Shown here: positions 22,285 through 55,007 of the stretch, piece after piece
Layout of the letters: each line of letters opens with the position of its first letter
Position numbering within the stretch: the stretch's first letter is position 1
Assembly: GCA_963729625.1 (NCBI GenBank)
Contig: CAVSOU010000010.1
Span: 1,312,001-1,376,000, forward strand
Reading direction: 5' to 3'
Source of the DNA: an uncultured bacterium
GTDB lineage: Bacteria; Chloroflexota; UBA5177; JANWHV01
DNA: 64,000 nucleotides
Notes under the pieces: generated by a model
The model's database searches: none
Told to the model about the DNA's origin: nothing
What the model saw: the letters and a program-made list of their open reading frames with translations, nothing else
Translations under genes and position numbers: made by a program

Positions 22285-23040
22285 CTACTGAAGGATGCGG
22301 TCGACCAGGCGATTGAACGTCGCGGTTACGGGCAGATCCGGATACTTCACGGTGAAAACGCCACCGCTGGCGAGGGTCATGATCTCATCCGAGTGCGGGA
22401 ACACGGCAGCCACTTCACTGCTATACGTTTCTTGCACGCGCATCCGAACCGACTCGGCATCGAGGCTGGGCGGACACTTGTTCACGACGAGCAACAGCAA
22501 CGGGACGCTTAGCTTGCGCGCCACTTGCACGGTCACCCCGGTACCCTGATAGTCCTGCAAGTCTGGTCGCAGCACGATCAGCAGCACGTCGGAAATGGCG
22601 ATGGACAGCAGTGTCTCCTCGTTGAGGCCAGGGTGCGTATCGATAATCAGCGTGTCCAGCTTCAAATCGCGTACCAGGGCGTTGAACCCGTCGTTTAGCA
22701 ATCCAACGTCGTATCCCTCGCGCAAGATGCGAGCAATGTTGTTTGCCTGCACGCTGGCCGGCACCAGGAAGACGCGGCCGGGCAAATCCCCGGCTACCGT
22801 GTTCGTTACGTCATATGCGGCGTCCTTGATCTCGCACTTGCCCCACAGATAGTCGTTGAGGACGGGGCCGGCCGGATCCTGCGACATGCCGAACAGCACG
22901 TGGATACCGGGCGACATGATATCTGTGTCAACGATGCCCACACGCTGTCCACGTACAGCCAACAATGCCGCCAGATTCGCCGACGTATTCGACTTCCCAG
23001 TGCCCCCGCGGTAGCTATGAACCGAAATAATACGCGCCAT
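22285..23040 (-). CDS. MinD/ParA-family ATPase
   Basis: ISVHSYRGGTGKSN (deviant Walker A), IVDTDI..PG, IIDTHPGL, VVNK. Confidence 0.9.
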   Translation of the reverse strand: MARIISVHSYRGGTGKSNTSANLAALLAVRGQRVGIVDTDIMSPGIHVLFGMSQDPAGPVLNDYLWGKCEIKDAAYDVTNTVAGDLPGRVFLVPASVQANNIARILREGYDVGLLNDGFNALVRDLKLDTLIIDTHPGLNEETLLSIAISDVLLIVLRPDLQDYQGTGVTVQVARKLSVPLLLLVVNKCPPSLDAESVRMRVQETYSSEVAAVFPHSDEIMTLASGGVFTVKYPDLPVTATFNRLVDRILQ

Positions 23041-23070
23041 ATGTATTCCTCTCTTCGTGCAGTCCGGGTG

Positions 23071-23499
23071 CTATGCAGACGACTTTGGACGATGCACGAC
23101 GACAATGTTCCGGTTTCCCTCCGCGGTCCGCTCGTAGCGGAGCTCATCGGTGCCGCGAAGGGCCAGGAACACCCCGAGACCACCGATCTCACGCTCTTCC
23201 AAGGGCCGGTCCAAGTCGTCGGGCGACTGTGCTTCATGCGGGTCGAAAGGCTCAGCCTTGTCCTCGAGGCAGAGGCGCAACTCCGCCTCGTCAAGTTCCG
23301 CCCACATAGCGATCGGCCCTTGTCGGTTCGCCCCGGCATAGCCGTGTACGACAATGTTCGTGGCAATCTCGTCAACCGCAAGGCGCAATTGATATGAAGC
23401 CTTCCTGTCCAAACCGGCATCAGCCGCTGCGCGCAGCACGAACTGGCCGATATCCGCCAGCGATTCCAGGGTGCCAGGGACGGTCAGACGGTCCACCAT
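23071..23499 (-). CDS. RsbW/SpoIIAB-type anti-sigma kinase (GHKL)
   Basis: LAVDEIATNIVVHGY, ED...FDP, GGLGVFL, Y.R..GN. Confidence 0.92.
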   Translation of the reverse strand: MVDRLTVPGTLESLADIGQFVLRAAADAGLDRKASYQLRLAVDEIATNIVVHGYAGANRQGPIAMWAELDEAELRLCLEDKAEPFDPHEAQSPDDLDRPLEEREIGGLGVFLALRGTDELRYERTAEGNRNIVVVHRPKSSA

Positions 23500-23561
23500 T
23501 CTCTCCTTTGAAACCTGTTGTCTCTAGTCGCTGCCCGATCGGTCAGCGCCAGCACGCAACT

Positions 23562-24488
23562 TCAAGTGATTGCGAACGGTTCTTCCGTCGTCGACCGGCG
23601 CACTGCCAGCATCGTGATGTCGTCGAACTGCACCGCGGTGCCGATATGCGCGGTTAGATGAGCATGGACGCTCGACACCAGCTCTTTCGCCGAAGCCGGC
23701 ATCGGACTGTTGATGATCGATCGCAGTCTCGCTTCGGTGAAAAACGCGCCTGTGACATCTCGCGCCTCTGGCACACCATCGGTGAAGGCCAGCAACATGT
23801 CTCCAGGCGCAAATGTGACCTGCTGGATCGCAAAATCCACGTCCGGGACCATGCCGACTGCGGGTCCCGTTGGCGTAAGGCGCTGCTTCACGCCCGACTC
23901 GTTGAACAACCAGGGCGGGCAATGGCCGCCATTGATGTACGTCAGCACGCCGGACCCAGGGTCTAGCACGCCGAAGAACATGGTGGCAAACATGCTTGTG
24001 TCGCCATGATTCGTGATAATGTAGTTGTTGGTCAGCGTCATGGCGTTCTTCAGTGCGGTCGTGCCTGTGGAGGGGATGCCGCGGCGCCTGTCCGCGACCG
24101 GGCTACTGAGGAAGTCCGACTCTTCGTCGCCCATCCAGCGCAGCGAATAGTGCTGCTGAGCAAAGGCGCGAATGAGGCTGCGGAAAAGTGCCATAAACAG
24201 CGCCGCCCCTACCCCCTTGTCGCACACGTCGGCAATCACCAGGCCGAGCCGCCGGCCCTGGTTGAGCGGAAACGCATCGTAGAAATCGCCCGCTACCTCG
24301 CGCGCCGGCTCGAACTCCGCGGCAAGCTCCCAGCCCGGCACCTGCGGCAGCGTCTTGGGCAGAAAGCTGAGCTGAATATCGCGCCCGATCTGTATGTCAC
24401 GCTCGAGCTTGAGCAGCACCTCCTCGCGCTTGGCGTTGGCTGTGCTCTGCTGCCCAGCATCATCCTCTATCATGCAGTGGTTCTCCAT
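23562..24488 (-). CDS. PP2C phosphatase (SpoIIE/RsbU family) without a sensory domain
   Basis: IQLSFLP, EVAGDFYD, IADVCDKGVGAAL, MFATMFFG, INGGH, FTDGV.EA, QFDDIT. Confidence 0.93.
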   Translation of the reverse strand: MENHCMIEDDAGQQSTANAKREEVLLKLERDIQIGRDIQLSFLPKTLPQVPGWELAAEFEPAREVAGDFYDAFPLNQGRRLGLVIADVCDKGVGAALFMALFRSLIRAFAQQHYSLRWMGDEESDFLSSPVADRRRGIPSTGTTALKNAMTLTNNYIITNHGDTSMFATMFFGVLDPGSGVLTYINGGHCPPWLFNESGVKQRLTPTGPAVGMVPDVDFAIQQVTFAPGDMLLAFTDGVPEARDVTGAFFTEARLRSIINSPMPASAKELVSSVHAHLTAHIGTAVQFDDITMLAVRRSTTEEPFAIT

Positions 24489-24512
24489 CCCTGAGCTTGT
24501 GTTCGGACAGGC

Positions 24513-24827
24513 TCAGTAGGTGTCGACAATGGAGACACTGTGCTGGAAGCCTGTCATCTCCAGCGTGTCCCTCACGCCGTCTTGCAGGCCCACGAGCACG
24601 ACTTCCACCGAGCCACCCATCTTTTGCTTTGCAAAGATCAAGCCGCGCAAACCGGCGCTGGCCATGTATGACAGGCCGGACATAAAGATGACCAGCTTGC
24701 TCACGTGCGCGCCGGCCGCTTCCTCGACCTTCTCCCGAAACGCGGGAGCTACGCTAGCGTCAAGCTCGCCTTCCAAGGTGATCCGTGCTTCGTCCCCTTC
24801 GATCGTGAGCGTTGCATTGAAGGCCAT
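24513..24827 (-). CDS. STAS anti-sigma-factor antagonist
   Basis: LEGELDA..LSYMASAGLR..V.DTLEMTGF; RBS GGAG before MAFNAT. Confidence 0.92.
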   Translation of the reverse strand: MAFNATLTIEGDEARITLEGELDASVAPAFREKVEEAAGAHVSKLVIFMSGLSYMASAGLRGLIFAKQKMGGSVEVVLVGLQDGVRDTLEMTGFQHSVSIVDTY

Positions 24828-24869
24828 GTCCTGCTCCATTCCACATGCGAGCGCAGTCAATTGAGCTGA

Positions 24870-26996
24870 CTAGCGCCCAACCAAGATACAAACCGAGCGA
24901 TCGCTAAGGACCATAGCGTGCTGGTCGCTCAGCACGGGCTCGGCGCCAAGCTCCCAAACGTCATCGGGTGCAGCCACGCCGGTGTTGGCGAATACGTGCC
25001 AGGCACAGCCTTCGGGCAGTCCCGGCAACTCGAACACGTGGGATTCCCAGTGCATGTTCATTGCCACGTAGACAAAGTCATCCCGTTCGGTGCCGCCTCG
25101 CGCGTGATGTCCATCCAAGAGAAAGGCCAGCGTGCGACTCGTGCCGGACCAATCCGCGTTCCACGCCTGGGTGCCATGCCAGGTGATGTCGGAATAGCCG
25201 CTGCCTACGTAGTCGCGGTTGGAGAAGTGGTACTGGTTGCGCAGCACGGAATGTGCATGGCGGAAGTGGATGCAGGCTCGGCAGAAACGGAGGAGGCCCG
25301 CGTTGCTTTCAACCTGGCGCCAGTCCAGCCAGCTCAACTCGGAGTCGTGGCAATAGGCATTGTTGTTGCCTTGTTGGCTCCGCCCGATCTCATCGCCCAT
25401 CAAGATCATCGGCACGCCCTGACTCGTCAACAGCATCGCCAGCGCGTTCTTGATCTGTTTCTGACGCAGGAAATTGATCCCGGGATCGTCCGTCCATCCT
25501 TCTGCGCCGCAGTTCCAACTGTGGTTATCGTCAGTGCCGTCGTTGTTGAACTCGCCGTTGGCAGAGTTGTGCTTTTCGTTGAACGAGACCAGATCGGCGA
25601 GTGTGAAACCGTCGTGGCAGGTGATGAAGTTGACGGAGGCCGCGGCACCGCGCCCAAGCGCCTCGTAGAGATCCGGCGACCCTTGCAGCCGCTGACCCAT
25701 GTCGCCTACCACACCCTCATCACCTTTGAGGAAACGGCGCAGCGTGTCCCGGTACTTGCCGTTCCACTCGGCCCAGCGACCGAAGGCCGGGAAGCTGCCC
25801 ACCTGGTACAGTCCGCCGGCATCCCAGGCTTCGGCGATGAGCTTGCACTTTGCCAGCACCGGGTCGTAGGCCAGGGTCTCCAGCAACGGCGGGTTGGAGA
25901 GCGGCGCGCCGTTCTGGTCCCGTCCCAGAATCGCCGCGAGGTCGAAGCGAAAGCCATCGATGTGATACTCTGAGGCCCAATAGCGAAGGCAATCAAGAAC
26001 CATGTTGCGCACAATGGGATTGTTGCAATTGAGCGTGTTGCCCGTGCCACTGAAATTGAAGTAGTAGCCTTCGGGCGTCAGCATGTAGTAGGTCTTGTTG
26101 TCGATGCCTCGGAACGAGATGGTCGGACCGCGCTCGTTGCCCTCGGCAGTATGGTTGAACACCACGTCGAGGAACACTTCGATACCGGCGCGGTGGAGAT
26201 CTTTGATAAGCGCCTTCACCTCATCGACTTGCATCCCCAGCTTGCCGGTGGCCGCGTAGCCCGACTTAGGCGCGAAGAAGCCCACGGTGCTGTAGCCCCA
26301 AAAATTGTAAAGCGTCTCCCCTGTCTCCGGCAGCACGCGGCTGCCCTCAAACTCGTCGAACTCATAGATGGGAAGCAGCTCCACACAATTGACCCCGAGC
26401 CCCTTCAGATAGGGGAGCTTCTCGCGGATGGCGGCAAACGTACCGGGGTGTTTGGCGCCCGACGACGGATGCTGCGTGAAGGCGCGTGCGTGCATTTCAT
26501 AGATCACGAGATCCTCGATAGGGATCTCCAAAGGGCGATCGGACTCCCAGTCAAAGTCGTCGTATACCGGCCGCGCACGATGAGGGTAGGCGTCGTTCCA
26601 GTCGGGCTGCTTGCCCCAATGGTCACGGCCCGCGATCGCCTTCGCGTAGGGATCCAACAGGATCTTGGTCGGGTCGAATCGATGGCCCTCGCTCGGCGCG
26701 TATGGCCCTTCCATGCGGTAGCCGTACTCGATAGACTCGGGGTCGAGGTCGAAGACGACCATGGCGAAGACATTGCCGATGCGGAAGGCATCGGGAACTG
26801 GAATCTCCACCAGTGGCTCCGCCGCCCCCTTCTGGAACAGCACGAGCGTGCAGGTTGTCGCGTGGCGCGAATAGATGGAAAAGTTGATCCCGCCCGGTAC
26901 GAGCGTGGCGCCAAAGGGGAAGGGCTTGCCAGGGCGGAGCCGGTAGCCCAGGTGCTCGTGGGTTGGATGGACGTCGATGCGCTCCATAACTGGCAT
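24870..26996 (-). CDS. glgX: Glycogen debranching enzyme (GH13 isoamylase)
   Basis: GKPFPFGAT, LLDPYAK, NFWGYST.GFFAP, LDVVFNHTAEG, DGFRFDLA, LIAEAWD, FITCHDGFTL, QGVPMI.MGDE..QQGNNNAYC. Confidence 0.95.
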   Translation of the reverse strand: MPVMERIDVHPTHEHLGYRLRPGKPFPFGATLVPGGINFSIYSRHATTCTLVLFQKGAAEPLVEIPVPDAFRIGNVFAMVVFDLDPESIEYGYRMEGPYAPSEGHRFDPTKILLDPYAKAIAGRDHWGKQPDWNDAYPHRARPVYDDFDWESDRPLEIPIEDLVIYEMHARAFTQHPSSGAKHPGTFAAIREKLPYLKGLGVNCVELLPIYEFDEFEGSRVLPETGETLYNFWGYSTVGFFAPKSGYAATGKLGMQVDEVKALIKDLHRAGIEVFLDVVFNHTAEGNERGPTISFRGIDNKTYYMLTPEGYYFNFSGTGNTLNCNNPIVRNMVLDCLRYWASEYHIDGFRFDLAAILGRDQNGAPLSNPPLLETLAYDPVLAKCKLIAEAWDAGGLYQVGSFPAFGRWAEWNGKYRDTLRRFLKGDEGVVGDMGQRLQGSPDLYEALGRGAAASVNFITCHDGFTLADLVSFNEKHNSANGEFNNDGTDDNHSWNCGAEGWTDDPGINFLRQKQIKNALAMLLTSQGVPMILMGDEIGRSQQGNNNAYCHDSELSWLDWRQVESNAGLLRFCRACIHFRHAHSVLRNQYHFSNRDYVGSGYSDITWHGTQAWNADWSGTSRTLAFLLDGHHARGGTERDDFVYVAMNMHWESHVFELPGLPEGCAWHVFANTGVAAPDDVWELGAEPVLSDQHAMVLSDRSVCILVGR

Positions 26997-27002
26997 GGCC
27001 GG

Positions 27003-27344
27003 TTACCCCTTTCCCAGCGATGCCAACGCCGCGGCCACGCTCGGGTACGTGGTGAAGAACTCGAGGAACCCGGTCGCGGCCATCGTGTCCTGCAGATCCT
27101 CCGACAAGCCTACCAGGTGCACTGAGCCGCCTTTGGCGGTGGCGGACCGGTGCGCGGACAGCAGCATCCTCAGGCCGGCACTCGACATATACGCGACTCC
27201 CGTCATGTCCAGAATCACGCCCACCCCGGCCACCAATTGCTCCAGGATCCGTGCCTGCGCCACCGGCGCCGTGCTCCCGTCGATGTCGCCTGCAAGCTCC
27301 ACGACGGTCGCACCGTCCACGCTCTTGACCAGAACCTCCATCAT
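27003..27344 (-). CDS. STAS anti-sigma-factor antagonist
   Basis: LAGDIDGSTAP, LDMTGVAYMSSAGLR, TGF..FF; RBS GGAGG. Confidence 0.92.
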   Translation of the reverse strand: MMEVLVKSVDGATVVELAGDIDGSTAPVAQARILEQLVAGVGVILDMTGVAYMSSAGLRMLLSAHRSATAKGGSVHLVGLSEDLQDTMAATGFLEFFTTYPSVAAALASLGKG

Positions 27345-27420
27345 TGCCCTCCAGGCCCATGCACTTGGGCTCCATCCACCTGGGTAGAGACCCGCATCAC
27401 TTGTGCGGCAGCGCTCCGGG

Positions 27421-29238: not shown

Positions 29239-29359
29239 CCAGGCGATCTCCTTGCAGCTGAAACACTTACCGCAGATACCGCATGCATCGACAAGCGTGG
29301 AGGTTGAGCTCGCAGTCAACCCCACCGTCCACGAGCGGCAATAGATGGCTCAATTCTTC

Positions 29360-29368
29360 ACTATAGCA
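29360..29368 (-). promoter_or_regulatory. Extended -10 element upstream of the AGE-glgX-partner-switch operon
   Basis: TG-C-TATAGT on the minus strand in an AT-rich intergenic patch about 120 bp upstream of the start. Confidence 0.4.
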
Positions 29369-29472
29369 GGAATAATCTACAAAAGTTGGGCATTACAGGT
29401 CGCTCGTGCCGGTTGGCGCCATCGAGGCGGTCGTGCCAGCGGCAGTGGCAAACAGGGCGCGTCGGGCTCCCA

Positions 29473-30282
29473 TCATTTCATGAAGCTGTCATCAAGGGGC
29501 TGGCCATCGACGACGGCCGAATCCCCTCCGTCGAAGGTCCGAGACCCGCGGACAGTTCGGGCCCGAAGCTGCAGGTTCTTGAAGAAATCGGTGTCGGCAA
29601 TCTCGGCCACCTGTTTAGCTTGGAGTGCAGGGTCGATTTCTATACGGAGCTCGCGCACCTGTTGCTTGAGCGCCTCCTCCCGGGCCTGCACTTCGCGCGC
29701 CATCTGCTGAAACTTGCGGGCAAGATGTCCCAATGAGTCAGTTCGCTGGGTTACTTCCTGCAGCGCTTCAGGGCGGAACGTGCCGACTTCAAGATCGTGG
29801 GCCGCAGCGGTGATCATTTCGACCATGCGAATATACTCGTAGTCCTCCGTCCGATCCGAATTGGTGCCCCGCAGGCGCTCGCACAGCACTTTGATCACGC
29901 CTTCAGCCACCTCACTGCGCTCGCTGAGCAGATGGCGAAATGCCGTGCTACTGAGCCGGTACAGCCGGCAGGCGGTGGCGGCTACTGCGGTGGCACTCCG
30001 TGTCTGCGAATCCAGTACCGCCATTTCACCAAATACTTCGCCCGGATAGTGGTGATCAAGCAGCAGGGGACCGTCGAAGATGCCGACTTTGCCGTCGACG
30101 ATGATATAGAGTGCGTCACCCATCTCACCCTTGGCGAAAATGGTCCGGCCGGCTTCGATGGCCACCGCAGTGAGGGCCTCTGCAACTTCGAGAAGCACGT
30201 GTTCGGGAGTGCCCGCCAGGATACCAATGCCGCGCAAGCAGGTCAATCGTTCTTCGATGTTCTTCAAGTGTTTCGCCCCCAT
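29473..30282 (-). CDS. Cyclic-nucleotide-binding protein with HAMP-like/coiled-coil C-terminal module
   Basis: IFAKGEMGDALYII.DG.V, FGEMAVLDSQTRSA (phosphate-binding cassette); tail LARKFQQMAREVQAREEALKQQVRELRIEID..VAEIADTDFF. Start uncertain. Confidence 0.85.
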   Translation of the reverse strand: MGAKHLKNIEERLTCLRGIGILAGTPEHVLLEVAEALTAVAIEAGRTIFAKGEMGDALYIIVDGKVGIFDGPLLLDHHYPGEVFGEMAVLDSQTRSATAVAATACRLYRLSSTAFRHLLSERSEVAEGVIKVLCERLRGTNSDRTEDYEYIRMVEMITAAAHDLEVGTFRPEALQEVTQRTDSLGHLARKFQQMAREVQAREEALKQQVRELRIEIDPALQAKQVAEIADTDFFKNLQLRARTVRGSRTFDGGDSAVVDGQPLDDSFMK

Positions 30283-33830: not shown

Positions 33831-33962
33831 CGTGTAGGTAACCGTGTGCCACCCCGCATGCACCAACCCTTCCCGATTCTGCTATCGCTGGAATCGCGTT
33901 TACGAGATAGTATGGATTGGGCAATTGGACGCCATCGGAGATGCGGGTGGGGGACATCCACT

Positions 33963-47240: not shown

Positions 47241-47408
47241 GACACAGACCACGGGGGAACGCAGGGCGAGGCTTTGGTGAATCGCCTACCGCTCCCGAAC
47301 GCTGTTGATCGCGCTCGTCTTGGCTGTCACAGGTCGTGTCCCAGGTAGGGGTACGCCCTGTCTTCTGGATGAGCCCTTAAGCATCTTGGTCCTATGGGAG
47401 TAAAGACG

Positions 47409-47850: not shown

Positions 47851-50748
47851 TTGCGGATTTCGCTCACAGTCAACGGGCAGCCGTATCGAGCGGAGGTCGA
47901 GCCGAGACTGCCGCTTGTCGACTTGCTGCGTGACACGCTTGGTTTGACGGGCACGAAGAACGGTTGCGGCACGGGTGAGTGTGGTGCATGCACCGTTCTG
48001 CTCAACCACCGGTCGGTCAAGAGCTGCCTGTTGCTCGCCGCACAGGTGGACGGTGCCGAAATCACGACGATAGAGGGATTGGCCACGCGCGATCAGCTCA
48101 ATCCAATCCAGCAGGCATTCTGGGAGCAGTTCGCGGTTCAGGATGGATATGCTACGCCTGGTGCGGTGCTCGCGGCAACGGACCTGCTCGAACACAATCC
48201 GGCGCCGACCGAACGAGAGATCCGGGGCTGGCTCGATGGCTCGCTCGATCGAATTACCGGTTATCAGAACGTAGTGACGGCAATCAGTGCCGCCGCTGGA
48301 GTATTGCAAGGTACAGCACCCTCCCCCGATGGAGCTGCCCCTTCTCCGATTGTAGGCGCGTCAATCAAGACCAAGGAAGCGCCGGCGATGCTGCGCGGTG
48401 AAACACGCTATGTTGCCGACATTACACTGCCCGGCATGGTGCACGCTGCGATTCTTCGCAGTACGGTGCCACATGCTCGGCTCAAGCATGTCGACACGTC
48501 GGCTGCCAGTACGATGCCCGGCGTCGTGGGGGTGTATACCGGCGAGGACACGGCGGACATCATGCCGCTGCCTGTTATCTGGGTACCGCAGGATGTGGAA
48601 ACCCACTTCCCGCCTCACCCATCGGGCATGGTACCCGGCTCCCAGCTGGTTCTTGCGAGGGAGCGAGTACGATTCGTGGGTGATCCCATCGCGGTAGCGG
48701 TTGCGGAAACCCGACAGCAGGCCGTTGACGCTCTCGACAAGATCGTGGTCGATTATGAGCCATTGCCGTTCGTACTCGATGCCGAGGAAGCGCTCAAGGA
48801 TGGCGCACCACAGCTGCACGATACGGTGCCTAACAACCTTGTGTTCCGCGCTTCATACGGAGACAAGGCGCAGACGGAACAGGCTATCGCGGACGCCGAG
48901 GTCGTCGTGCGGCAGCGCATCCGCAGCCAGCGAATGATCGCCAACACTATCGAGACGCGCGGGGCAATCGGCAGCTACGACCAGACGACCGGCGACTACA
49001 CGCTGTGGACCAACGTGCAGCCGCTGTATCCGGTACGCCTGCTCATCTCCCTGTATGTGCTCGGTATCCCGTACAACAAGCTTCGCGTTATCGCCCCCGC
49101 AATCGGCGGCAGCAACGGCTCGAAGGGCTACCTGTTCGCCGACGGGCCGCTCGTGCTCTGGCTGTCGAAGAAGATCGGCAAACCGGTCAAGTGGATCGAC
49201 ACACGCGAGGGCATTGCCCAATCCACGCCACATGGTCGCGACCATGTTGACGATGTCACGCTTGCCGGTACGAAGGACGGCAGAATCACAGCGCTCCACT
49301 GCTCGGGCTACAGCAACATCGGTGCGTATCCGGTGATAAACGCCCCCGGTCAGCCGCGCACGCTGATTGGGAAGAGCATAACAGGCGCCTATGCAATCGA
49401 GCGCCCCTATTACGAAGTCGCAGTGGTCATGACGAACACGGTGCAGGTCGGCGCCCTGCGCGGCTCCGGCAGGGCCGAGGCCATCTACATGATCGAGCGC
49501 ATGGTCGACATCTACGCGCGCGAAATCGGCATGGACCCCGCCGAAGTCCGCCGCAAGAATATGGTGCAGCCGGATCAGCTTCCCTATGACAACAAGCTGG
49601 GCTGGCTTTATGACTCAGGCGACTACCCTGCGGCGTTGTCCAGGGCGCTGGAGGCGGTCGATTATGCCCACCGCGCGGAACGAAAGGCCGAAGCGCGCGG
49701 GCGTGGCAAGAGGCTGGGCGTGGGAATCGGCTCTTACGTCGCGGTCGCGGGTGTGGGCCCGTCGGCCAAGATGGGCAAGGAAGGGCTGGTAAGTGGTACG
49801 TGGGGTAGCGCTCATATCGGCGTTCAGCCAACCGGCGAGGTGGTTGTGACCACGGGCGCTCAACCCCATGGACAGGCCCACGAGACCACGCTGGCACAGA
49901 TCGCCGGTGCCGAGCTCGGCGTCCCTGTCGACAGGATTCGGGTCCGTCACTCGGACACGGAAGGGCCACTCCTCTATGGCCAGGGAAGCTATGGCAGTCG
50001 AACGCTCTCCGTCGAGGGCGCAGCTGTCCACCTCGCGGCGCAGAAGATCAAGGACAAGGCTCGGCGACTCGCGGCCCATCTCTTCAAAGCAAATGTCGAC
50101 GATATCATCTACGACGGGGACGCAGGCAAGGTCTTCCTGAAGTTCGCGCCAGACCAGGCGGTGATGCCGCTCCAACAGGTTGCGTTCGTGGCTTGGCTTG
50201 CCTGGGATCTGCCGGAAGGCATGGATCCCGTGCTGGAAGCACTCGCGTATTTCAATCCACCCGAGTTCAACTACCCATTCGGGACACACGTGGCCGAAGT
50301 TGAAGTCGACGAGGACACCGGCGAGGTTAGCCTGGTGCGCTATGTCGCGGTCGACGACTTCGGCACCGTCGTGAACCCCGGCGTTGTGGATGGCCAGACG
50401 CACGGCAATATCGCGCTGGGCGTAGGGCAGGCACTATTCGAAGAGGCTCTGTACGGTGCAGATGGGCAGCTCGTGGCGGGCGACTTCTCCGCGTATGCCA
50501 TTCCTCGAGCGTCGCAGCTGCCAAGCTTCGAGTTGCACCGCACGGTCACGCCTACGCCGAACAATCCGTTGGGGGCGAAAGGGGCAGGCGACGTCAGCAA
50601 TCCGCCCGTCGCTCCCGCGGTTGTCAATGCCGTTTGCGATGCGCTGAGCGACCTGGGCATCCGACACATCGAAACGCCGCTGACTCCCGAAAAGGTTTGG
50701 CGGGCGATGCAGGCGGCTACAGAACGTAGTGGGGCGGTGATTGCATGA
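47851..50748 (+). CDS. Xanthine-dehydrogenase-family Mo-hydroxylase with fused [2Fe-2S] (CoxS-like) and Mo-binding (CoxL-like) subunits; atypical ligands
   Basis: GTKNGCGTGECGACTV..KSC; YVADI..PGM.H..ILRS..HA; ALRGSGRAE; YDSGDY; HGQ.HET; YGSR; GQ.HG; GAKGAGD. Confidence 0.93.
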   Translation: MRISLTVNGQPYRAEVEPRLPLVDLLRDTLGLTGTKNGCGTGECGACTVLLNHRSVKSCLLLAAQVDGAEITTIEGLATRDQLNPIQQAFWEQFAVQDGYATPGAVLAATDLLEHNPAPTEREIRGWLDGSLDRITGYQNVVTAISAAAGVLQGTAPSPDGAAPSPIVGASIKTKEAPAMLRGETRYVADITLPGMVHAAILRSTVPHARLKHVDTSAASTMPGVVGVYTGEDTADIMPLPVIWVPQDVETHFPPHPSGMVPGSQLVLARERVRFVGDPIAVAVAETRQQAVDALDKIVVDYEPLPFVLDAEEALKDGAPQLHDTVPNNLVFRASYGDKAQTEQAIADAEVVVRQRIRSQRMIANTIETRGAIGSYDQTTGDYTLWTNVQPLYPVRLLISLYVLGIPYNKLRVIAPAIGGSNGSKGYLFADGPLVLWLSKKIGKPVKWIDTREGIAQSTPHGRDHVDDVTLAGTKDGRITALHCSGYSNIGAYPVINAPGQPRTLIGKSITGAYAIERPYYEVAVVMTNTVQVGALRGSGRAEAIYMIERMVDIYAREIGMDPAEVRRKNMVQPDQLPYDNKLGWLYDSGDYPAALSRALEAVDYAHRAERKAEARGRGKRLGVGIGSYVAVAGVGPSAKMGKEGLVSGTWGSAHIGVQPTGEVVVTTGAQPHGQAHETTLAQIAGAELGVPVDRIRVRHSDTEGPLLYGQGSYGSRTLSVEGAAVHLAAQKIKDKARRLAAHLFKANVDDIIYDGDAGKVFLKFAPDQAVMPLQQVAFVAWLAWDLPEGMDPVLEALAYFNPPEFNYPFGTHVAEVEVDEDTGEVSLVRYVAVDDFGTVVNPGVVDGQTHGNIALGVGQALFEEALYGADGQLVAGDFSAYAIPRASQLPSFELHRTVTPTPNNPLGAKGAGDVSNPPVAPAVVNAVCDALSDLGIRHIETPLTPEKVWRAMQAATERSGAVIA

Positions 50749-51617
50749 TTCCCGCGCAGTTTGAGTATGCGACGGCAACCAGCGTGAACGAAGCTGTGCG
50801 GTATCTTGAGGCGCATCCAGGCGCACGTGCGCTCGCTGGAGGCACGGGGCTGATCCCCGCCCTCTCACGCCGCCGCCTGACCGCAAGCGCCTTGGTCGAT
50901 CTTCAACACATACCCGGACTTGCGGCCATGACGCCGCTGGACACGGGTGGCGTGCGCATAGGGGCGCTTGCCACGCTCGCGGCGATTGTCGACAGGGAGG
51001 GTATGCGGGCAGCCTATCCGGTGTTGGCGGAAGCAATCGCTTCTGCCGCCGATCCACAGATTCGCAACCGCGCGACGCTCGGTGGCAGCCTTGTCCTCGA
51101 CCACCGGGGAGGAGATGTCGCGGCTGCGCTTTTGGCTTTGGGCGCGTCTATAAACGTCACTGGGCCTGCCGGCGATCGGGTGGTCGCCATCGACAGGCTC
51201 CTCAGCGATCTCGGAGCTGCTCGTCTTGCCCCAGCCGAGATCGTGACGTCGATCGATCTTCCCGGTGACGCCTCGGGCACTGCGTATGAGAAGATCCGCA
51301 ATCCTGCCAGCGGCTTTGCCATTTGCGGCATAGCTGCGTTGATCCGGCTTGGTGGGGAAGGCGCGGTGAGCCAGTGCCGCGTGGCGGTGACCGGAGCGAC
51401 CGCTGCTGTGACCCGTCTGCTGTTGCTGGAGGAAAGCCTCACGGGACAAGCTGCTTCTCTGGCGACGATTGCCGGCAGCGCGCTTGCGGCGCAAGTGGCA
51501 ACCCTCGCTTTCGCCGGCGACTGGCCGGCGTCTGCAGAGTTCCGAGCGCATTTGACTCGAGTACTGGCAGTGCGCGCCGTGCGACGCGCGGCAGAGCGCG
51601 CCGGATGGCGTGCGTGA
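50745..51617 (+). CDS. Mo-hydroxylase FAD-binding subunit (CoxM-like)
   Basis: MIPAQFEY, LAGGT.L, IGAL, DPQIRNRATLGGS, AYEK; ATGA overlap with the large subunit. Confidence 0.9.
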   Translation: MIPAQFEYATATSVNEAVRYLEAHPGARALAGGTGLIPALSRRRLTASALVDLQHIPGLAAMTPLDTGGVRIGALATLAAIVDREGMRAAYPVLAEAIASAADPQIRNRATLGGSLVLDHRGGDVAAALLALGASINVTGPAGDRVVAIDRLLSDLGAARLAPAEIVTSIDLPGDASGTAYEKIRNPASGFAICGIAALIRLGGEGAVSQCRVAVTGATAAVTRLLLLEESLTGQAASLATIAGSALAAQVATLAFAGDWPASAEFRAHLTRVLAVRAVRRAAERAGWRA

Positions 51618-51731: not shown

Positions 51732-52124
51732 GTGAAGAACGTACCTGACACAGCGCTCGGGCGCATGTATCGTGAGCACATCCAACATATCCTGGACAAG
51801 GACATCGAGTCACTGCTGGACCAGTATACCGATGATGCCCTGCTGATCAGCAGCTTCACCCGAAAGCCCCTCATCTACAAGGGTCGTGCGGAGATCCGCG
51901 AACATATGCAGGGTATTCTTGGCATCCAGGGCCTGGAAACCGACATCGCATTTTGGGCGGAGACAGAGAGTCCGCAGACTCTCATGATTGTGGAGGAGAT
52001 CACCATGCAAACTGCTGACGGGGAAGCACGCATGCGCTTCGCCGACAGCTGGGTGCTGCGTGAAGGGCGTATAGCCATACACTTTGCTGGGATGACCCAG
52101 TATCCCGACGGCTCGGTGGCCTAG
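51732..52124 (+). CDS. SnoaL/NTF2-like protein (resembles 47409)
   Basis: KDIESLLDQYTDDALL, KGR.EI, D.WVLREGRI..HFAG. Confidence 0.8.
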   Translation: MKNVPDTALGRMYREHIQHILDKDIESLLDQYTDDALLISSFTRKPLIYKGRAEIREHMQGILGIQGLETDIAFWAETESPQTLMIVEEITMQTADGEARMRFADSWVLREGRIAIHFAGMTQYPDGSVA

Positions 52125-52129
52125 CACAC

Positions 52130-52990
52130 ATGTCTGCCCTGCGCAACAAGTATCTGGCAATGCGCTATTTCCAGGAGATCATGGTCGGGGCCAACATCGC
52201 GACCATGTATGAGCTGGTGGCGCCAGAGTGTGTCCTGACTCTGCCCACATACCCCCATACCTACAGTGGCCCGGATGGCTGCAGAGACCTCGTGAGCATG
52301 CTGCACGGTTGTTTCCCAGATTACTTCATCCATCTCAATGACATGGTGGCATCCGGTGACACTGTGGTGACGCGCTGGCGATCTGGTGGCACGCACCTCG
52401 GCGCGACGTTCACATCAGTTGGCGGTAGTATTCCGGCCAGTGGGCGCTCGTTTGAAATTGACGGCATGACGTGGCTTCGCATGGCCGGTGGCCAGATCGT
52501 GGAAGCAATCGGCCATGAGGATACGGCCGGCATGTTCACGCAGCTTGGCGTGATCCCCAGTGCGTCGAGCGCCACAACGCCGGAGCAGAACCTTGCTACG
52601 GCGCACCGCTACTTCGATGAAGTCATGAATCAGGGCAAGCTGCGTGTGATCGAAGAGATCATGGCGCCCGGCATCCAGTTCATTATCCCAACTCAGCCGG
52701 AGCCTATCACGGGATACGGCAATATGGGCGGGTTTGTCGGCTATCTGCGCAACGCCTTCCCGGACATCCATTTTGCTGTTGAGCGTGAGATTGCGGTGGA
52801 TAACAAAGTCGCCGTGCGATGGTCCATCACAGGCACGCATGCCGGCGAATTCCTGGGCAAGCCGCCTACCGGGAACGCGATCGAGGACTTCGGCATCGAT
52901 ATCTTTACGTTTGAGGACGGTAAGATCCGGGCCGTGCACGTGAGCGAGAATGACTTCGGACTGTTTCAGCAACTCGAACCCAGAAAGTGA
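52130..52990 (+). CDS. Tandem two-domain SnoaL-like ester cyclase
   Basis: Two copies of RYF.E.M..G, FPD, V.RW...GTH.G, P.G, G.I, F.QL. Confidence 0.9.
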   Translation: MSALRNKYLAMRYFQEIMVGANIATMYELVAPECVLTLPTYPHTYSGPDGCRDLVSMLHGCFPDYFIHLNDMVASGDTVVTRWRSGGTHLGATFTSVGGSIPASGRSFEIDGMTWLRMAGGQIVEAIGHEDTAGMFTQLGVIPSASSATTPEQNLATAHRYFDEVMNQGKLRVIEEIMAPGIQFIIPTQPEPITGYGNMGGFVGYLRNAFPDIHFAVEREIAVDNKVAVRWSITGTHAGEFLGKPPTGNAIEDFGIDIFTFEDGKIRAVHVSENDFGLFQQLEPRK

Positions 52991-53021
52991 TTCGCGGTTG
53001 GCGCCTGCTGAAAAGACGCTG

Positions 53022-54551
53022 GTGAGTGCCCGACACGCCTATGACTACGTTGTGGTCGGCGCCGGCGCGAGCGGCTGTGTGCTGGCCAATCGCCTGAGTG
53101 CTGACCCGGCGACGCAAGTCCTGCTCCTAGAAGCCGGTGGGACCGACCACGAGCCCCGCATCCACAATCTGGACGGCTTTGTGCAGCTCTGGGGCACCGA
53201 TGTCGCCTGGGCTTTCCTCACTGAGAAGCAAGCTGGCCTCAATGGGCGGCAAATCCTGATCAACCAGGGCAAGGTGTTTGGCGGCGGCAGCTCGATCCAC
53301 GCCATGATGTACGTGCGCGGCAACCGCCTCAACTTCGATCAATGGAGCGCGCTTGGCGCGGATGGGTGGAGCTACGAGGAAGTACTGCCGTATTTTAGGA
53401 AATCTGAGAACTACGAGGGCGGCGCTTCAGCATATCGCGGCGTAGATGGCCCGCTCGATGTCCGACCGTGCCCCGACCCTGTCGCCCGCTCGCTCGCGTT
53501 TCAGGAGGCGGCCGTGGAGCTGGGTTACGACGGCCCGGATTGGGATTACAACGGTGCCCGCCAGGACGACGGCGTGGGACCGATCCAATTCAATATCGGC
53601 AACGATGGCCGTCGCGTCAGCGCGGCCACGGCGTTTCTCACGCCGGCACTCGGTCGCCCTAACCTCACTGTGCACACGCATGCCGAAGCTACCCGCGTGC
53701 TTTTCGCGGGCATGCACGCGGTGGGTGTCGAGTATCGCCAGGACGGCCAGGACCAGCAGGCCCGGGTCGCGCGTGAGGTAGTCCTCAGCGCCGGCACATT
53801 CATGTCGCCCAGGATTCTGATGCATTCCGGAATCGGACCGGCGCCGCACCTGGAGGCTCACGGCATCCCCGTGCTCGTCGACCTGCCCGGTGTTGGTCAG
53901 AACTTGCACGATCACCTGCAGATCTCGGTGGTCTACAAGTCGCGAGTACCCCTCGCCGATCCCACGCTGCTGGCCGGGAACGTCCTGTTCACGCGCTCCC
54001 GCAAGGGCACGCAGACCGCGCCGCCCGATCTGCAGATCATGTACAGCCCCGGCGTCCCGTCGGCCCTATCGTCCGCGATCCCAGGGCCTCGCCCAGCCAG
54101 CATTTTCATTCCCATTCTGCTGCAACCCCGTAGCCGGGGAGACGTCCGCCTGCGATCTGCCGACCCGACCGATGCGCCGGTCATCGACCCACAGTACCTG
54201 CAGCGCGAATGCGACCTCGAGGCCCTGCTGCAGTCGGTCCGTATAGTACGCGATCTGGCCGGTACCAGGGCGTTTTCCGATCTCAATGGCGGCGAGATAG
54301 CGCCGGGCCCGAATGCCGACCTCAAGGACTACGTCCGCCGCAGCGCGACGACCATGTGGCATCCTGTCGGCACGTGCAGGATGGGCCGCGATGCCCTGGC
54401 GGTGGTCGATCCGCAATTGCGGGTCGTTGGCGTCTCCGGGCTCCGTGTTGCCGATGCGTCGGTCATGCCGGCAATTCCCAGCGGCAATACATTCGCGGTA
54501 TGCGTGATGATTGGCGAGAAACTGATAGGCCTGTTACATGGCACTGATTGA
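53022..54551 (+). CDS. GMC-family flavin oxidoreductase
   Basis: YDYVVVGAGASGCVLANRLS, GKVFGGGSSI, GVGQNLHDH, WHPVGTCRMG, LRVADASVMP...SGNT. Start uncertain (52998 or 53022). Confidence 0.93.
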   Translation: MSARHAYDYVVVGAGASGCVLANRLSADPATQVLLLEAGGTDHEPRIHNLDGFVQLWGTDVAWAFLTEKQAGLNGRQILINQGKVFGGGSSIHAMMYVRGNRLNFDQWSALGADGWSYEEVLPYFRKSENYEGGASAYRGVDGPLDVRPCPDPVARSLAFQEAAVELGYDGPDWDYNGARQDDGVGPIQFNIGNDGRRVSAATAFLTPALGRPNLTVHTHAEATRVLFAGMHAVGVEYRQDGQDQQARVAREVVLSAGTFMSPRILMHSGIGPAPHLEAHGIPVLVDLPGVGQNLHDHLQISVVYKSRVPLADPTLLAGNVLFTRSRKGTQTAPPDLQIMYSPGVPSALSSAIPGPRPASIFIPILLQPRSRGDVRLRSADPTDAPVIDPQYLQRECDLEALLQSVRIVRDLAGTRAFSDLNGGEIAPGPNADLKDYVRRSATTMWHPVGTCRMGRDALAVVDPQLRVVGVSGLRVADASVMPAIPSGNTFAVCVMIGEKLIGLLHGTD

Positions 54552-54584
54552 TCGACACTCGTGGCTCAGGGAGGTAGAGGACAA

Positions 54585-55007
54585 GTGGTTCATACGGCGT
54601 TTGCCCACGTGGGGTTGACCTGCAAAGATCCTGTCGCGGTCGAGCGGTTCTATACTGAGCACTTTGGCTTCCGGCGAGCGCGCGCGATCCCGCTGGGGGG
54701 CACTGAACAGATCGTCTACATCAAGTCGGGCGATATGTACCTGGAGCTGTTCCAGGCGAAAGCGCCGGCCCCGATCGCGCCGCCCGAGCAGGATGGTTAT
54801 GGCTGGCCCGGCGTGCGCCACCTGGCGTTTGTAGTAGACGATGTCGATGCCAAGCTCGCCGAGCTTGGCAATGCCGCAAAGGTCACGCTTGGACCGCTGG
54901 ACTTCAGTGACTTCATTCCAGGATGGCGAACCGCCTGGGTTGCCGATCCGGAGGGCAACATTGTCGAGATAAGCCAGGGGTATCAGGACGATCCGGGCCT
55001 GATCTAG
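54585..55007 (+). CDS. VOC/glyoxalase-family protein
   Basis: HVGL, FY...FGF, LELF, RHLAF.VDDVD, DPEGNIVEI; GGAGG/GAGG upstream. Confidence 0.9.
   Translation: MVHTAFAHVGLTCKDPVAVERFYTEHFGFRRARAIPLGGTEQIVYIKSGDMYLELFQAKAPAPIAPPEQDGYGWPGVRHLAFVVDDVDAKLAELGNAAKVTLGPLDFSDFIPGWRTAWVADPEGNIVEISQGYQDDPGLI

Follow-up and report, generated by a model that had tools for sequence, protein, structure and literature searches.

An icfG-type partner-switching cassette co-inherited with carbonyl-family enzymes in an uncultured Chloroflexota bacterium

The window analysed here is a stretch of 64,000 nucleotides from an uncultured bacterium of the phylum Chloroflexota (assembly GCA_963729625.1, contig CAVSOU010000010.1, positions 1,312,001 to 1,376,000), in which about 33 kb (22285-55007) hold two arms of genes. 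The left arm, encoding an AGE-like protein of sugar-epimerase fold, a STAS protein, GlgX, a second STAS protein, a PP2C phosphatase and a serine kinase, is a homologue of the icfG cluster of Synechocystis, known since the 1990s. What is new here is that part of the right arm is co-inherited with this icfG-type cassette; the cassette core itself was already known. It is well supported that a PfpI-type DJ-1 protein (DJ1b), ThiJ-like DJ-1, a thiamine diphosphate (ThDP) enzyme, VOC and GMC proteins and some SnoaL genes belong to the same system as the left arm. With somewhat more confidence than doubt, we read the region as an extended icfG-type system: one horizontally spread unit of four layers, in which a STAS switch would gate the sugar enzyme or enzymes together with co-inherited carbonyl-family enzymes.

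Since the 1990s, the icfG cluster of cyanobacteria has been tied to the regulation of carbon and glucose, and its enzymes have so far had no assigned role. In many phyla, gut anaerobes and cyanobacteria included, the cassette is co-inherited, and partly fused, with defined carbonyl-family enzymes, which widens the outputs expected of partner-switching signalling. A full-text search, which covered few subscription journals, turned up no paper that describes the extended cluster or the control of an enzyme by a STAS protein.

The left arm is an icfG-type cassette

The window has a G+C content of about 62%; its contig is longer than 1.3 Mb and belongs to an assembly of 5.41 Mb (21 contigs, 87% complete, 5% contamination). 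For 24500-33500 no RNA data set was listed, and five DNA runs cover part of it, the best with a share of 0.35. Its 63 candidate open reading frames (ORFs) were scanned with Pfam and NCBIfam. The left-arm inventory that an earlier note had read from the letters alone (a cyclic-nucleotide (cNMP) sensor, AGE-like protein, STAS, glgX, STAS, PP2C, RsbW-like kinase and MinD-like ATPase) was recovered in full, as follows (aa, amino acids).

22285-23040, minus strand: MinD/ParA-like ATPase (Pfam ParA, AAA_31, CbiA)
23071-23499, minus strand: RsbW/SpoIIAB-like serine kinase (HATPase_c_2, E 7e-22)
23562-24488, minus strand: PP2C/SpoIIE phosphatase, 308 aa, without a sensor domain of its own (SpoIIE, E 1e-45)
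24513-24860, minus strand: STAS2 (Pfam STAS, E 2e-17)
24870-26996, minus strand: GlgX/isoamylase-type GH13 enzyme, 708 aa (TIGR02100, 711.9 bits against a cut-off of 640.9)
27003-27344, minus strand: STAS1, of the anti-sigma-antagonist type, between the AGE-like gene and GlgX (STAS, E 5e-23; TIGR00377, 82.8 bits, above cut-off)
27421-29325, minus strand: AGE-like (alpha/alpha)6 sugar epimerase/isomerase-fold protein, 634 aa, the hallmark gene (GlcNAc_2-epim, E 5e-10)
29473-30471, minus strand: cNMP-binding sensor with a C-terminal coiled-coil module shared with a second sensor (cNMP_binding, E 6e-20)

The true start of the cNMP sensor probably lies further downstream; its same-genus match begins at residue 52. 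In the MinD-like ATPase, the stretch YRGGTGKS presumably has arginine in place of the signature lysine of the deviant Walker A motif, KGGxGK, usual in MinD/ParA.

A search with the AGE-like protein against one genome per species returned at least 596 stretches, of which the best 80 were kept as loci (numbered L). They carry 16 phylum-level labels, counting "unknown" and two proteobacterial classes: 38 loci are cyanobacterial, 10 Bacillota and 9 Chloroflexota, and the other labels include Bacteroidota, Verrucomicrobiota, Spirochaetota, Omnitrophota, Deinococcota, Planctomycetota, Myxococcota and Nitrospirota. Neighbours were sought within 10 kb of the AGE-like gene. Accessory orthologues were called by tblastn with the window proteins at an identity of at least 45% and a coverage of at least 50%. 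Because many of the loci are cut by contig ends, neighbour counts are lower bounds.

The AGE-like protein was 58-70% identical (best tblastn segment) to its counterparts in all 80 loci and 16 labels, and an alignment of 40 sequences gave a mean column identity of 67% with eight invariant histidines. Against the two Synechocystis loci (L050 and L051; Synechocystis salina and Synechocystis sp.), identity was 64-66% over residues 30-634, and the protein is likely orthologous to Synechocystis Slr1855. GlgX was 68-73% identical in the Synechocystis loci. By tblastn, the neighbours of the AGE-like gene included STAS2 (76 of 80 loci), GlgX (73), STAS1 (55), the kinase (52) and PP2C (42). The window order AGE, STAS, GlgX, STAS (29325-24513, minus strand) is followed directly downstream on the same strand by PP2C and the kinase. 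In clustered ORF order, a STAS gene separated AGE from GlgX in 36 other loci, and one immediately followed GlgX, likewise in 36 other loci. L050 reads 203-aa protein, CMD-family protein, DJ-1, AGE-like, STAS, GlgX, STAS, 634-aa PP2C and kinase, and its genes were matched to slr numbers by inference from this order.

Earlier papers on the icfG cluster are reportedly those of Beuf (1994) and of Shi, Bischoff and Kennelly (1999). Two further papers describe the slr1852-slr1862 icfG operon of Synechocystis PCC 6803 (PMC12329169, PMC8670252). The earlier note had proposed an undescribed system, a description that has to be withdrawn because the core is this icfG cluster. In these papers, Slr1855 is annotated as N-acetylglucosamine 2-epimerase and Slr1856 as an antagonist, in an operon that holds GlgX and IcfG (PMC8670252); Slr1861 is the kinase of Slr1856, Slr1859 and Ssr1600, while IcfG dephosphorylates Slr1856 and not Slr1859 (PMC12329169). 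The icfG mutants are described there as showing no growth on glucose at low inorganic carbon (PMC12329169). On sequence grounds, the window kinase is a homologue of Slr1861.

A second cassette type, in which GlgX (about 46% identity) precedes an AGE::STAS fusion, was also observed (L026, L053-L055, L059-L063, L067, L068, L072-L074). It accompanies a response-regulator-flavoprotein oxidoreductase, a cNMP histidine kinase and LtrA in 10-12 of the 80 loci, the order given being read in L060 only, and a GH63/mannosylglycerate-hydrolase-like protein in six. No AGE::GlgX fusion was found: only four longer homologues of the AGE-like protein were found (E 1e-50 or better, 37-41% identity), and no member of the GlgX cluster exceeded 738 aa.

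Accessory enzymes are co-inherited with the cassette

The right arm holds the following accessory genes.

37534-38397, plus strand: DJ1a, ThiJ-like member of the DJ-1 superfamily, 287 aa (ThiJ_like, E 2e-21)
38448-40151, plus strand: ThDP enzyme (three TPP_enzyme domains)
40221-40790, plus strand: DJ1b, PfpI-type DJ-1, 189 aa (DJ-1_PfpI, E 3e-17)
40990-41436, plus strand: weakly SnoaL-like protein, 148 aa (SnoaL_4 and SnoaL_2, E 3e-4 to 5e-4)
41709-42200, plus strand: paralogue of the 148-aa gene, weakly SnoaL-like (SnoaL_2, E 0.0025)
42478-42891 and 42910-43329, plus strand: SnoaL pair (Pfam SnoaL, E 4e-33 and 3e-39)
46440-47240, plus strand: DJ1c, second ThiJ-like DJ-1 (ThiJ_like, DJ-1_PfpI)
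47394-47756, plus strand: SnoaL3 (SnoaL_2, E 6e-7)
51732-52124, plus strand: SnoaL4 (Pfam)
52130-52990, plus strand: tandem two-domain SnoaL protein (Pfam)
52950-54551, plus strand: GMC flavoprotein oxidoreductase (GMC_oxred_N, GMC_oxred_C)
54561-55007, plus strand: VOC/glyoxalase-fold protein (Pfam Glyoxalase, E 3e-13)

Pfam bore out the three DJ-1/PfpI proteins, ThDP enzyme, HpcH aldolase, molybdenum (Mo) hydroxylase with XdhC and MocA, GMC and VOC proposed for this arm, the match of its GNAT protein being weak. The seven SnoaL/NTF2 genes counted beforehand were also found, five above the Pfam cut-off and two weak (40990-41436 and 41709-42200). A 186-aa frame at 40967-41527 was rejected as a spurious shadow frame rich in Arg, Trp and Ser, the real gene being 40990-41436.

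The cross-phylum neighbourhood search that the earlier note had suggested found orthologues of both arms together, with at least one accessory orthologue beside the cassette, in 37 of the 80 loci and 12 of the 16 labels. DJ1b orthologues occurred in 30 loci (11 labels) and VOC orthologues in 18 (6 labels), the latter in most cases next to the AGE-like gene on its upstream side. Orthologues of SnoaL4 were present at 64-80% identity in 12 loci (4 labels), those of DJ1c in 11 (5 labels), as a rule ahead of a ThDP enzyme of a second type, and those of DJ1a in 10 (8 labels), mostly adjoining the ThDP gene. ThDP orthologues were found in 9 loci (6 labels), with the second ThDP type in 10 more, and GMC orthologues in 8 (4 labels). 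Among the 71 loci with at least 1.5 kb upstream, 29 had a DJ1b-family gene or a VOC gene immediately upstream of, and co-oriented with, the AGE-like gene.

The most complete arrangement was seen in a metagenome-assembled genome of the Trueperaceae (Deinococcota; L020), where the whole set lies on one strand with genes overlapping or near-abutting: DJ1a, ThDP, SnoaL4-type, 148-aa homologue, GMC, DJ1b, VOC, AGE, STAS, GlgX, kinase, PP2C and MinD, the second STAS being seen by tblastn only. A Bacteroidota locus (L028) is arranged similarly. Other SnoaL genes were less widely shared. The 148-aa gene was 83% identical in two copies of the cluster in a genome of the same genus (G001, below) and 36-48% identical in ten of the 80 loci, with an eleventh, cut by a contig end, matching at 85% over 48 residues. 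The cluster of the 41709-42200 protein drew on 12 sources (11 loci and the window; 6 labels), and the SnoaL pair had only distant relatives (below 45% identity) in 7-8 loci.

An unbiased check by all-against-all clustering of 1248 ORFs recovered the same accessory families and added EthD, CMD, LtrA, TMEM175-like channel, SDR and cupin proteins. Counts from this clustering are lower bounds, because the greedy choice of ORFs dropped some real genes for antisense frames (VOC in the window, AGE-like in L036 and L076); G+C at third codon positions separated real from shadow frames poorly.

A natural fusion of small accessory folds was observed as a protein of about 1005 aa (L045:1102-4119) with EthD, VOC and AtaL-like domains and a pair of SnoaL domains. 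Its gene is found on the upstream side of the cassette in 11 loci, of which 10 are cyanobacterial and one carries no label.

A phylogenetic profile of 301 genomes from the window's own phylum gave an all-or-none pattern. The AGE-like gene was present in 9 of these genomes. DJ1b (E 1e-40 or better, 63-88% identity) was present in 8 of these 9 and in none of the 292 AGE-negative genomes; in six of the 8, the window's genome included, it lay within about 3 kb of the AGE-like gene. The sole AGE-positive genome without DJ1b is 81% complete and has its AGE-like gene at a contig start. A ThDP enzyme of at least 60% identity was encoded in 6 of the 9 (same contig, within about 11 kb) and in 0 of the 292, where the best paralogue reached at most 43%. 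The AGE-positive genomes are non-independent, because they represent only five families. Judged by this distribution, DJ1b is the accessory gene most tightly linked to the cassette.

Fusions point the same way. We collected 106 protein clusters of DJ1b homologues longer than 331 aa (E 1e-30 or better), classed by precomputed Pfam entries, with domain order checked in 6. Fifty-four were DJ-1+AGE proteins (about 800-920 aa), many from named actinomycete isolates, 22 were DJ-1+ThiJ-like, 14 DJ-1+VOC, 4 GMC+DJ-1 and 1 ThDP+DJ-1. The remainder had DJ-1 only (4), ankyrin repeats (3), only a GMC C-terminal domain listed (3) or PAS-GGDEF (1). For example, P0037 (841 aa) combines DJ-1 (residues 9-186) with AGE (234-829), and its AGE part is 59% identical to the window protein over 598 residues. 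Such Rosetta-stone fusions of DJ-1 and AGE directly connect the left arm's hallmark gene with a gene from the right arm. As a separate observation, DJ1b-type domains (64-72% identity) are fused to ankyrin repeats in P0006, P0010 and P0058, with a prenyltransferase-like alpha-alpha toroid domain added in P0006.

Within the window's genome, 3 of 5 DJ-1 and 6 of 12 SnoaL_2 matches fall in these 33 kb, or 0.6% of the assembly, a concentration far above chance.

STAS2 is the predicted partner of the AGE-like enzyme

Both STAS proteins keep serines that could be phosphorylated: S54 and S55 of STAS1 were invariant in 38 sequences and S68 of STAS2 in 37. AGE::STAS fusions of 723-757 aa were found in 14 of the 80 loci (12 cyanobacterial, one unlabelled, one Chloroflexia). 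In 14 of 14, the fused STAS was of the STAS2 type, scoring about 80 bits on average with STAS2 types, compared with about 34 with STAS1 types.

A model of the complex between the AGE-like protein and STAS2 scored 0.82 (runs 0.85, 0.82 and 0.79), and the best of three controls scored 0.00. Among solved complexes 116 of 157 reach this mark, and among mismatched pairs 2 of 215; these counts apply only roughly when user alignments are supplied, as they were here. The runs agreed in at least 96% of contacts, with a partner pLDDT (predicted local distance difference test) of at least 83. On the STAS2 side, the predicted interface comprises residues 67-69, which include the invariant S68, and 72-79. 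On the AGE-like side it comprises residues 219-228, holding the invariant H220, D225, D227 and E228. In this model, a phosphate on S68 would clash with the acidic AGE residues of the interface. STAS2 is thus predicted to bind the AGE-like enzyme directly, and the fusions together with the complex model suggest that the switch acts directly on that enzyme.

Sensors resemble detached input domains

Upstream of DJ1a, the right arm begins with the following three genes.

33846-34322, plus strand: ORF of 158 aa (orf158), no family match, seen only in the genus
34351-35679, plus strand: MFS transporter, putative optional member of the input module (MFS_1, 33.7 bits)
35786-36850, plus strand: sensor with a HAMP-like region and the shared C-terminal module (HAMP, E 6e-5, below cut-off)

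Three finer assignments made beforehand did not survive the scan: the supposed winged-helix protein (orf158) had no family match even at E 1, the "Npt-like" transporter matched MFS_1 only, and the "Cache" part of the HAMP sensor gave nothing beyond the sub-threshold HAMP match. The C-terminal module said to occur on one sensor in each arm is real; residues 217-312 of the cNMP protein and 249-345 of the HAMP protein are 51% identical over 97 residues (E 8e-22). The HAMP sensor has a full-length homologue in L085 (34% over 326 residues), and weak MFS homologues adjoin the cassette in L012 and L085. In both same-genus copies orf158 directly follows MinD, at 57-61% identity.

PP2C homologues in other loci range from 278 to 844 aa. 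In L014, L015, L017 and L076, the PP2C is 591-633 aa long, and its N-terminus carries a cNMP domain that shares 29-42% identity with the cNMP protein encoded separately in the window. Loci with a short PP2C (L012, L044-L046) tend to carry MinD and separate proteins with the shared C-terminal module; L020 has MinD only. From this pairing of fused cNMP domains in some loci with separate module proteins in others, the sensors look like detached input domains. The MinD-like ATPase, found in 7 of the 80 loci (3 labels) and in both same-genus copies, appears to be an optional member of the signalling part.

Beyond the right arm lies a pair of further signalling genes.

56405-58318, minus strand: CHASE2 adenylate/guanylate cyclase (CHASE2, Guanylate_cyc)
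58399-59772, minus strand: FecR protein (Pfam)

One of the same-genus copies (copy B) has the CHASE2 cyclase and FecR pair immediately upstream of its cNMP sensor gene, and because it adjoins that gene the cyclase may supply the cyclic-nucleotide signal. The pair was present in 0 of the 80 loci, so that linkage is seen within the genus only. The flanks of the cluster (5517-22003 and 56405-59772) are signalling-rich, with two Ser/Thr kinases (one with Kelch, one with BNR repeats), a PAS adenylate/guanylate cyclase, the CHASE2 cyclase, a tandem Usp protein and FecR-domain paralogues.

Lineage-specific additions and rearrangement

The remaining genes of the region are of restricted distribution.

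30477-33830, plus strand: FecR/beta-helix protein, 1117 aa, between the arms (Pfam FecR, Beta_helix)
36872-37444, plus strand: GNAT-like acetyltransferase, seen only in the genus (weak Pfam GNAT matches)
43618-44409, plus strand: HpcH/HpaI-type aldolase (HpcH_HpaI, E 6e-41)
44503-45114, minus strand: MocA, Mo-cofactor maturation (NTP_transf_3, E 9e-33)
45111-46262, minus strand: XdhC, Mo-cofactor maturation (XdhC_C, E 1e-44)
47851-50748, plus strand: Mo-hydroxylase, fused 2Fe-2S and Mo subunit (MoCoBD_1/2, Fer2_2)
50745-51617, plus strand: flavin adenine dinucleotide (FAD) subunit of the Mo-hydroxylase (FAD_binding_5)
55079-56233, plus strand: ORF of 384 aa (orf384), seen only in the genus (no Pfam or NCBIfam match)

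Nearly all of the 33-kb inventory drawn up earlier was recovered; it had left out the 1117-aa FecR/beta-helix gene and orf384. The FecR/beta-helix gene was found in 0 of the 80 loci and, by its distribution, interrupts the cluster and lies outside the conserved system. It is one of four FecR-domain paralogues in the window, three of which have beta-helix regions of 1076-1495 aa.

The Mo-hydroxylase occurred within 10 kb of the AGE-like gene in only 2 of the 80 loci (L013 and L076; 1 label), where SnoaL3 again precedes it. HpcH, MocA, XdhC, GNAT, orf158, orf384, the FecR genes and the cyclases were found in 0 of the 80. The Mo-hydroxylase family is present in 132 of the 301 phylum genomes, and only the G047 copy (59% identity) lies between ThDP and AGE-like genes. 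In the same-genus genome, Mo-hydroxylase, XdhC, MocA and HpcH were not found in the 140 kb fetched around its two cluster copies, and no Mo-hydroxylase was present anywhere in that genome at E <= 1e-150. Judging by their occurrence, the Mo-hydroxylase, XdhC/MocA, HpcH and GNAT are lineage-specific additions, with HpcH, MocA and XdhC particular to the cluster version of the window's genome and the Mo-hydroxylase an optional extra.

These distributions bear on the view that the arms are accidental neighbours, the right arm being an independent catabolic island beside an icfG cassette, for example for an aromatic or heterocyclic compound attacked by the Mo-hydroxylase, ThDP enzyme and aldolase. 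The occurrence of Mo-hydroxylase, XdhC, MocA, HpcH and GNAT in 0-2 of 80 loci suits it, as does the absence of the first four from the stretches fetched around the same-genus copies (both of which have GNAT). So do the spread of the Mo-hydroxylase family through the phylum regardless of the AGE-like gene, the foreign FecR gene that splits the arms and the unconserved orientation of the arms. For DJ1a/b/c, ThDP, VOC, GMC and SnoaL4, however, it is contradicted by synteny across 12 labels, the all-or-none profile and the fusions. It is tenable only for a sub-block of about 8 kb (43.6-51.6 kb), and even there the Mo-hydroxylase lies between accessory genes and the AGE-like gene in L013, L076 and G047. 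We consider this view very improbable. The earlier claim that the two arms form one system is accordingly well supported for those genes and not supported for the Mo-hydroxylase, XdhC, MocA, HpcH and GNAT.

The two copies in the same-genus genome (copies A and B) lie on one contig, each on a single strand. Both share the order (cNMP), AGE, STAS, GlgX, STAS, PP2C, kinase and MinD, continuing with orf158, (MFS), HAMP sensor, GNAT, DJ1a, ThDP, DJ1b and the 148-aa SnoaL-like gene. Copy A then has SnoaL4, the double SnoaL gene, GMC, VOC and orf384 (75% identity, after VOC), and copy B has VOC between DJ1b and the 148-aa gene. With the same-genus copies on single strands, the two divergent arms are a rearrangement of the window's genome: the arrangement is present in the window as first described, but it is genome-specific, the genes running on a single strand in the same-genus genome and in other phyla. 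A single inversion was considered as the cause of the difference in gene order and rejected, more than one rearrangement being needed.

The same-genus copies are diverged superclusters at about 284-306 kb and 906-922 kb of a 1.22-Mb contig (C16; L004-L011), each 70-91% identical to the window proteins. Three other genomes of the genus (83-92% complete) had no AGE-like gene. Two copies in one genome and congeners free of the gene point to duplication or repeated acquisition.

Two further genes lie near the window's edges. A PIN-domain gene (60503-60943, minus strand; PIN_3, E 6e-15) adjoins a small upstream ORF without a family match, and the two may be a toxin-antitoxin pair. A gene of the mandelate racemase/muconate-lactonising enzyme family lies at 3-767 (minus strand), at the window edge; because of its distance, a link to the cluster is unlikely.

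Enzyme folds and putative chemistry

The AGE-like protein was modelled with a pLDDT of 81, and its best fold matches were glucose 2-epimerase, cellobiose 2-epimerase, mannose isomerase and sulfoquinovose isomerase, with template modelling scores of 0.72-0.81 (target-normalised). Sequence search of solved structures gave marginal cellobiose 2-epimerase matches only (E 0.002). The closest solved relative of GlgX is plant isoamylase 1 (E 6e-190), with which the stretches GFRFDLA, AEAWDAGG and CHDG align; we take GFRFDLA, AEAWD and CHDG to be the GH13 catalytic motifs. No other glycogen-metabolism family was found in the cluster by the Pfam scan of the 63 ORFs.

The ThDP enzyme is closest to benzoylformate decarboxylase among solved structures (E 7e-59), and its NCBIfam equivalog scores fall below cut-off (benzoylformate decarboxylase, 299 against 493; acetolactate synthase, 300.7 against 363). 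The GMC protein has alcohol and choline oxidases as its nearest relatives of solved structure. In a full-length alignment, the Cys-His stretch ICHG of DJ1b aligns with ICHG of Protease PfpI (8r3n). By inspection, DJ1a and DJ1c have cysteines in AECYG and ALCYA, presumably the nucleophile elbow. The SnoaL proteins matched the methyl ester cyclase family NF033407 at 33-36 bits against a cut-off of 200. The Mo-hydroxylase module has all the parts expected of the xanthine dehydrogenase/CO dehydrogenase family (2Fe-2S and Mo-cofactor domains, FAD subunit, XdhC and MocA), and it scored below every NCBIfam equivalog cut-off (CO_dehy_Mo_lg, 604.8 against 991; glyceraldDH_alpha, 561.6 against 790).

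Oxidation, cleavage or quenching of aldehydes and 2-oxo compounds is known for the accessory families, which suggests intermediates of these two kinds. By analogy, the cluster would encode a sugar-processing route that passes through them. More speculatively, this genome could have an extra branch in which the HpcH aldolase cleaves and the glyceraldehyde-dehydrogenase-like Mo enzyme then oxidises.

The earlier note, which also allowed for carbonyl detoxification, had drawn a different scheme, in which stored alpha-glucan would be turned into a sugar-derived specialised small molecule, the ThDP enzyme and aldolase forming C-C bonds and the SnoaL proteins cyclising. Enzymes of C-C-bond and cyclase fold are indeed present, they are tightly co-inherited with the GlgX/AGE pair, and the patchy distribution (9 of 301 genomes) resembles that of specialised-metabolite clusters. 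No polyketide synthase or nonribosomal peptide synthetase domain was found among the 63 scanned ORFs, as the note had said, and neither was a glycosyltransferase or tailoring methyltransferase. The HpcH aldolase is found in 0 of the 80 other loci, the accessory composition differs by lineage, and the system is carried by bacteria as different as gut anaerobes, cyanobacteria and soil bacteria, a spread more in keeping with a housekeeping or stress function than with a niche metabolite. Mobilisation of stored alpha-glucan, and with it the biosynthetic scheme, is further weakened by a Synechocystis GlgX2 described as inactive on glycogen and dispensable (bioRxiv 10.1101/2022.11.21.517384). We regard biosynthesis as improbable.

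A proposed enzyme-gating switch

Gene content, co-inheritance, fusions and folds were observed directly, and the unit can be laid out in four putative layers. The enzyme core would comprise the AGE-fold protein and the GlgX-type GH13 enzyme, interleaved with two phosphorylatable STAS proteins. The switch would consist of the RsbW-like kinase and PP2C, with sensing handed to the separate cNMP and HAMP sensors, whose shared module is docking-like, the MinD-like ATPase and the MFS transporter. A conserved accessory layer would hold the PfpI-type DJ-1, ThiJ-like DJ-1, benzoylformate-decarboxylase-like ThDP, VOC, GMC and NTF2/SnoaL proteins, and a lineage-specific layer the Mo-hydroxylase with XdhC/MocA, the HpcH aldolase and GNAT.

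In the mechanism that we infer, covering binding, the effect of phosphorylation, substrate and chemistry, unphosphorylated STAS2 would bind the AGE-like enzyme through the face that carries the conserved serine. Phosphorylation by the kinase would release STAS2, and PP2C, driven by cNMP and membrane signals, would reset it. Through this cycle of binding and release, the switch would control an enzyme, either in place of a sigma factor or in addition to one. The substrate of the gated enzymes would be a sugar and probably an alpha-glucoside or an oligosaccharide; oxidation would fall to GMC, decarboxylation or cleavage to ThDP, and the handling of reactive carbonyls to DJ-1 and VOC.

A more specific version, which we put forward tentatively and at less than an even chance, is a metabolic partner switch. 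Here a STAS protein would, depending on its phosphorylation, dock on and gate a multi-enzyme assembly (AGE-like, PfpI-type DJ-1, VOC, GMC and ThDP) that handles a reactive sugar-derived carbonyl, the unit having been transferred horizontally among more than 12 phyla. If true, this would give a post-translational, non-transcriptional output to a signalling type that textbooks tie to sigma factors, and it could explain the glucose and low-carbon phenotype of icfG mutants, a puzzle since 1994.

The same genes could instead form a general-stress island, in which the switch mainly controls a sigma factor encoded elsewhere, as Slr1861 does SigC in Synechocystis, the accessory genes are stress-protective and stay beside their regulator for the sake of co-expression, and AGE-like and GlgX serve chiefly as carbon-status sensors that titrate STAS. 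General stress regulons typically contain small folds such as DJ-1, VOC, SnoaL, EthD, CMD and cupin. The accessory set, which varies, consists of such folds, and AGE::STAS fusions would suit a sensor equally. In PMC12329169, moreover, Slr1861 binds the antagonist Ssr1600 and is reported as anti-SigC (the SigC contact being modelled), and icfG mutants have carbon and glucose growth phenotypes; the inactivity of GlgX2 on glycogen (bioRxiv 10.1101/2022.11.21.517384) also suits sensors. Against this, no sigma-factor family was matched by Pfam among the 63 scanned window ORFs, a scan that made no search for a target elsewhere in the genome. The presumed catalytic motifs of GlgX and DJ1b are kept, and the AGE-like protein is 67% identical per column across phyla, which is unusual for pure sensors. 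The DJ-1::AGE, GMC+DJ-1 and ThDP::DJ-1 fusions suggest coupled catalysis over mere co-regulation. We judge a stress island unlikely, if still to be reckoned with.

Several points weigh against an enzyme-gating, extended icfG-type system. The AGE-STAS2 complex score is a model confidence and no measurement, and it was obtained with our own alignments. Fusion proteins from metagenomes can be gene-calling artefacts, though several of the fusions come from named isolates. The 80 loci are the best-scoring of at least 596, nearly half are cyanobacterial, and related genomes among them are non-independent. In 43 of the 80 no accessory orthologue lay within 10 kb; many of these are contig-cut, and most of the cyanobacterial ones have a distant DJ-1 only (about 30% identity). 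The accessory set differs in composition and order between lineages, which fits a toolkit better than a fixed linear pathway. Substrates and products of the cluster enzymes are all putative. In Synechocystis, GlgX2 (slr1857, the icfG-cluster glgX) is described as lacking debranching activity on glycogen in vitro, with a phenotype-free knockout (bioRxiv 10.1101/2022.11.21.517384). Finally, Slr1861 is reported as an anti-SigC factor in Synechocystis (PMC12329169), so a transcriptional output exists and could be the main one.

Comparison with known systems

The window's DJ-1 and VOC proteins resemble glyoxalase and deglycase enzymes (PfpI/YhbO/DJ-1 and VOC glyoxalase I-like) in that DJ1b aligns with PfpI and the VOC gene matches Pfam Glyoxalase. 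They differ in that all their scores lie below NCBIfam equivalog cut-offs and window-type relatives occur fused to AGE, VOC, GMC and ThDP domains. We know of no AGE, VOC, GMC or ThDP fusions among characterised PfpI, DJ-1 or VOC members.

With enzymes of the AGE superfamily (glucose 2-epimerase 8h1l, cellobiose 2-epimerase, mannose isomerase and YihS), the AGE-like protein shares the (alpha/alpha)6 barrel (Foldseek probability 1.00). However, it is only 13-20% identical to them and about 200 residues longer, and its model has an N-terminal beta domain (residues 40-123) and a C-terminal beta sandwich (565-632).

The switch is built like RsbV-RsbW-RsbU/sigma B and SpoIIAA-SpoIIAB-SpoIIE/sigma F, likewise with a STAS antagonist bearing a conserved serine, a GHKL-type serine kinase and a PP2C phosphatase. 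In contrast to these classical modules, the window cluster has no sigma-factor gene, and enzyme genes alternate with its two STAS paralogues. Fourteen loci have one of the STAS types joined to the AGE-like enzyme, which this type is also predicted to bind.

The closest likeness is to the icfG cluster of Synechocystis, where (L050) the genes for DJ-1-family, AGE-like, STAS, GlgX-type, STAS, PP2C and RsbW-like kinase proteins and their order match, and both window STAS proteins keep the conserved serines. The window differs in its short PP2C (308 against 634 aa), its separate cNMP and HAMP sensor proteins, its MinD-like ATPase and a reversed order of the kinase and phosphatase genes. Its DJ1b is of a highly conserved type, about 32% identical to the Synechocystis-type DJ-1. 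To the icfG gene set, the window adds ThDP, ThiJ-like, GMC, VOC, seven SnoaL genes and the Mo-hydroxylase module, and its cassette is inverted relative to these accessory genes.

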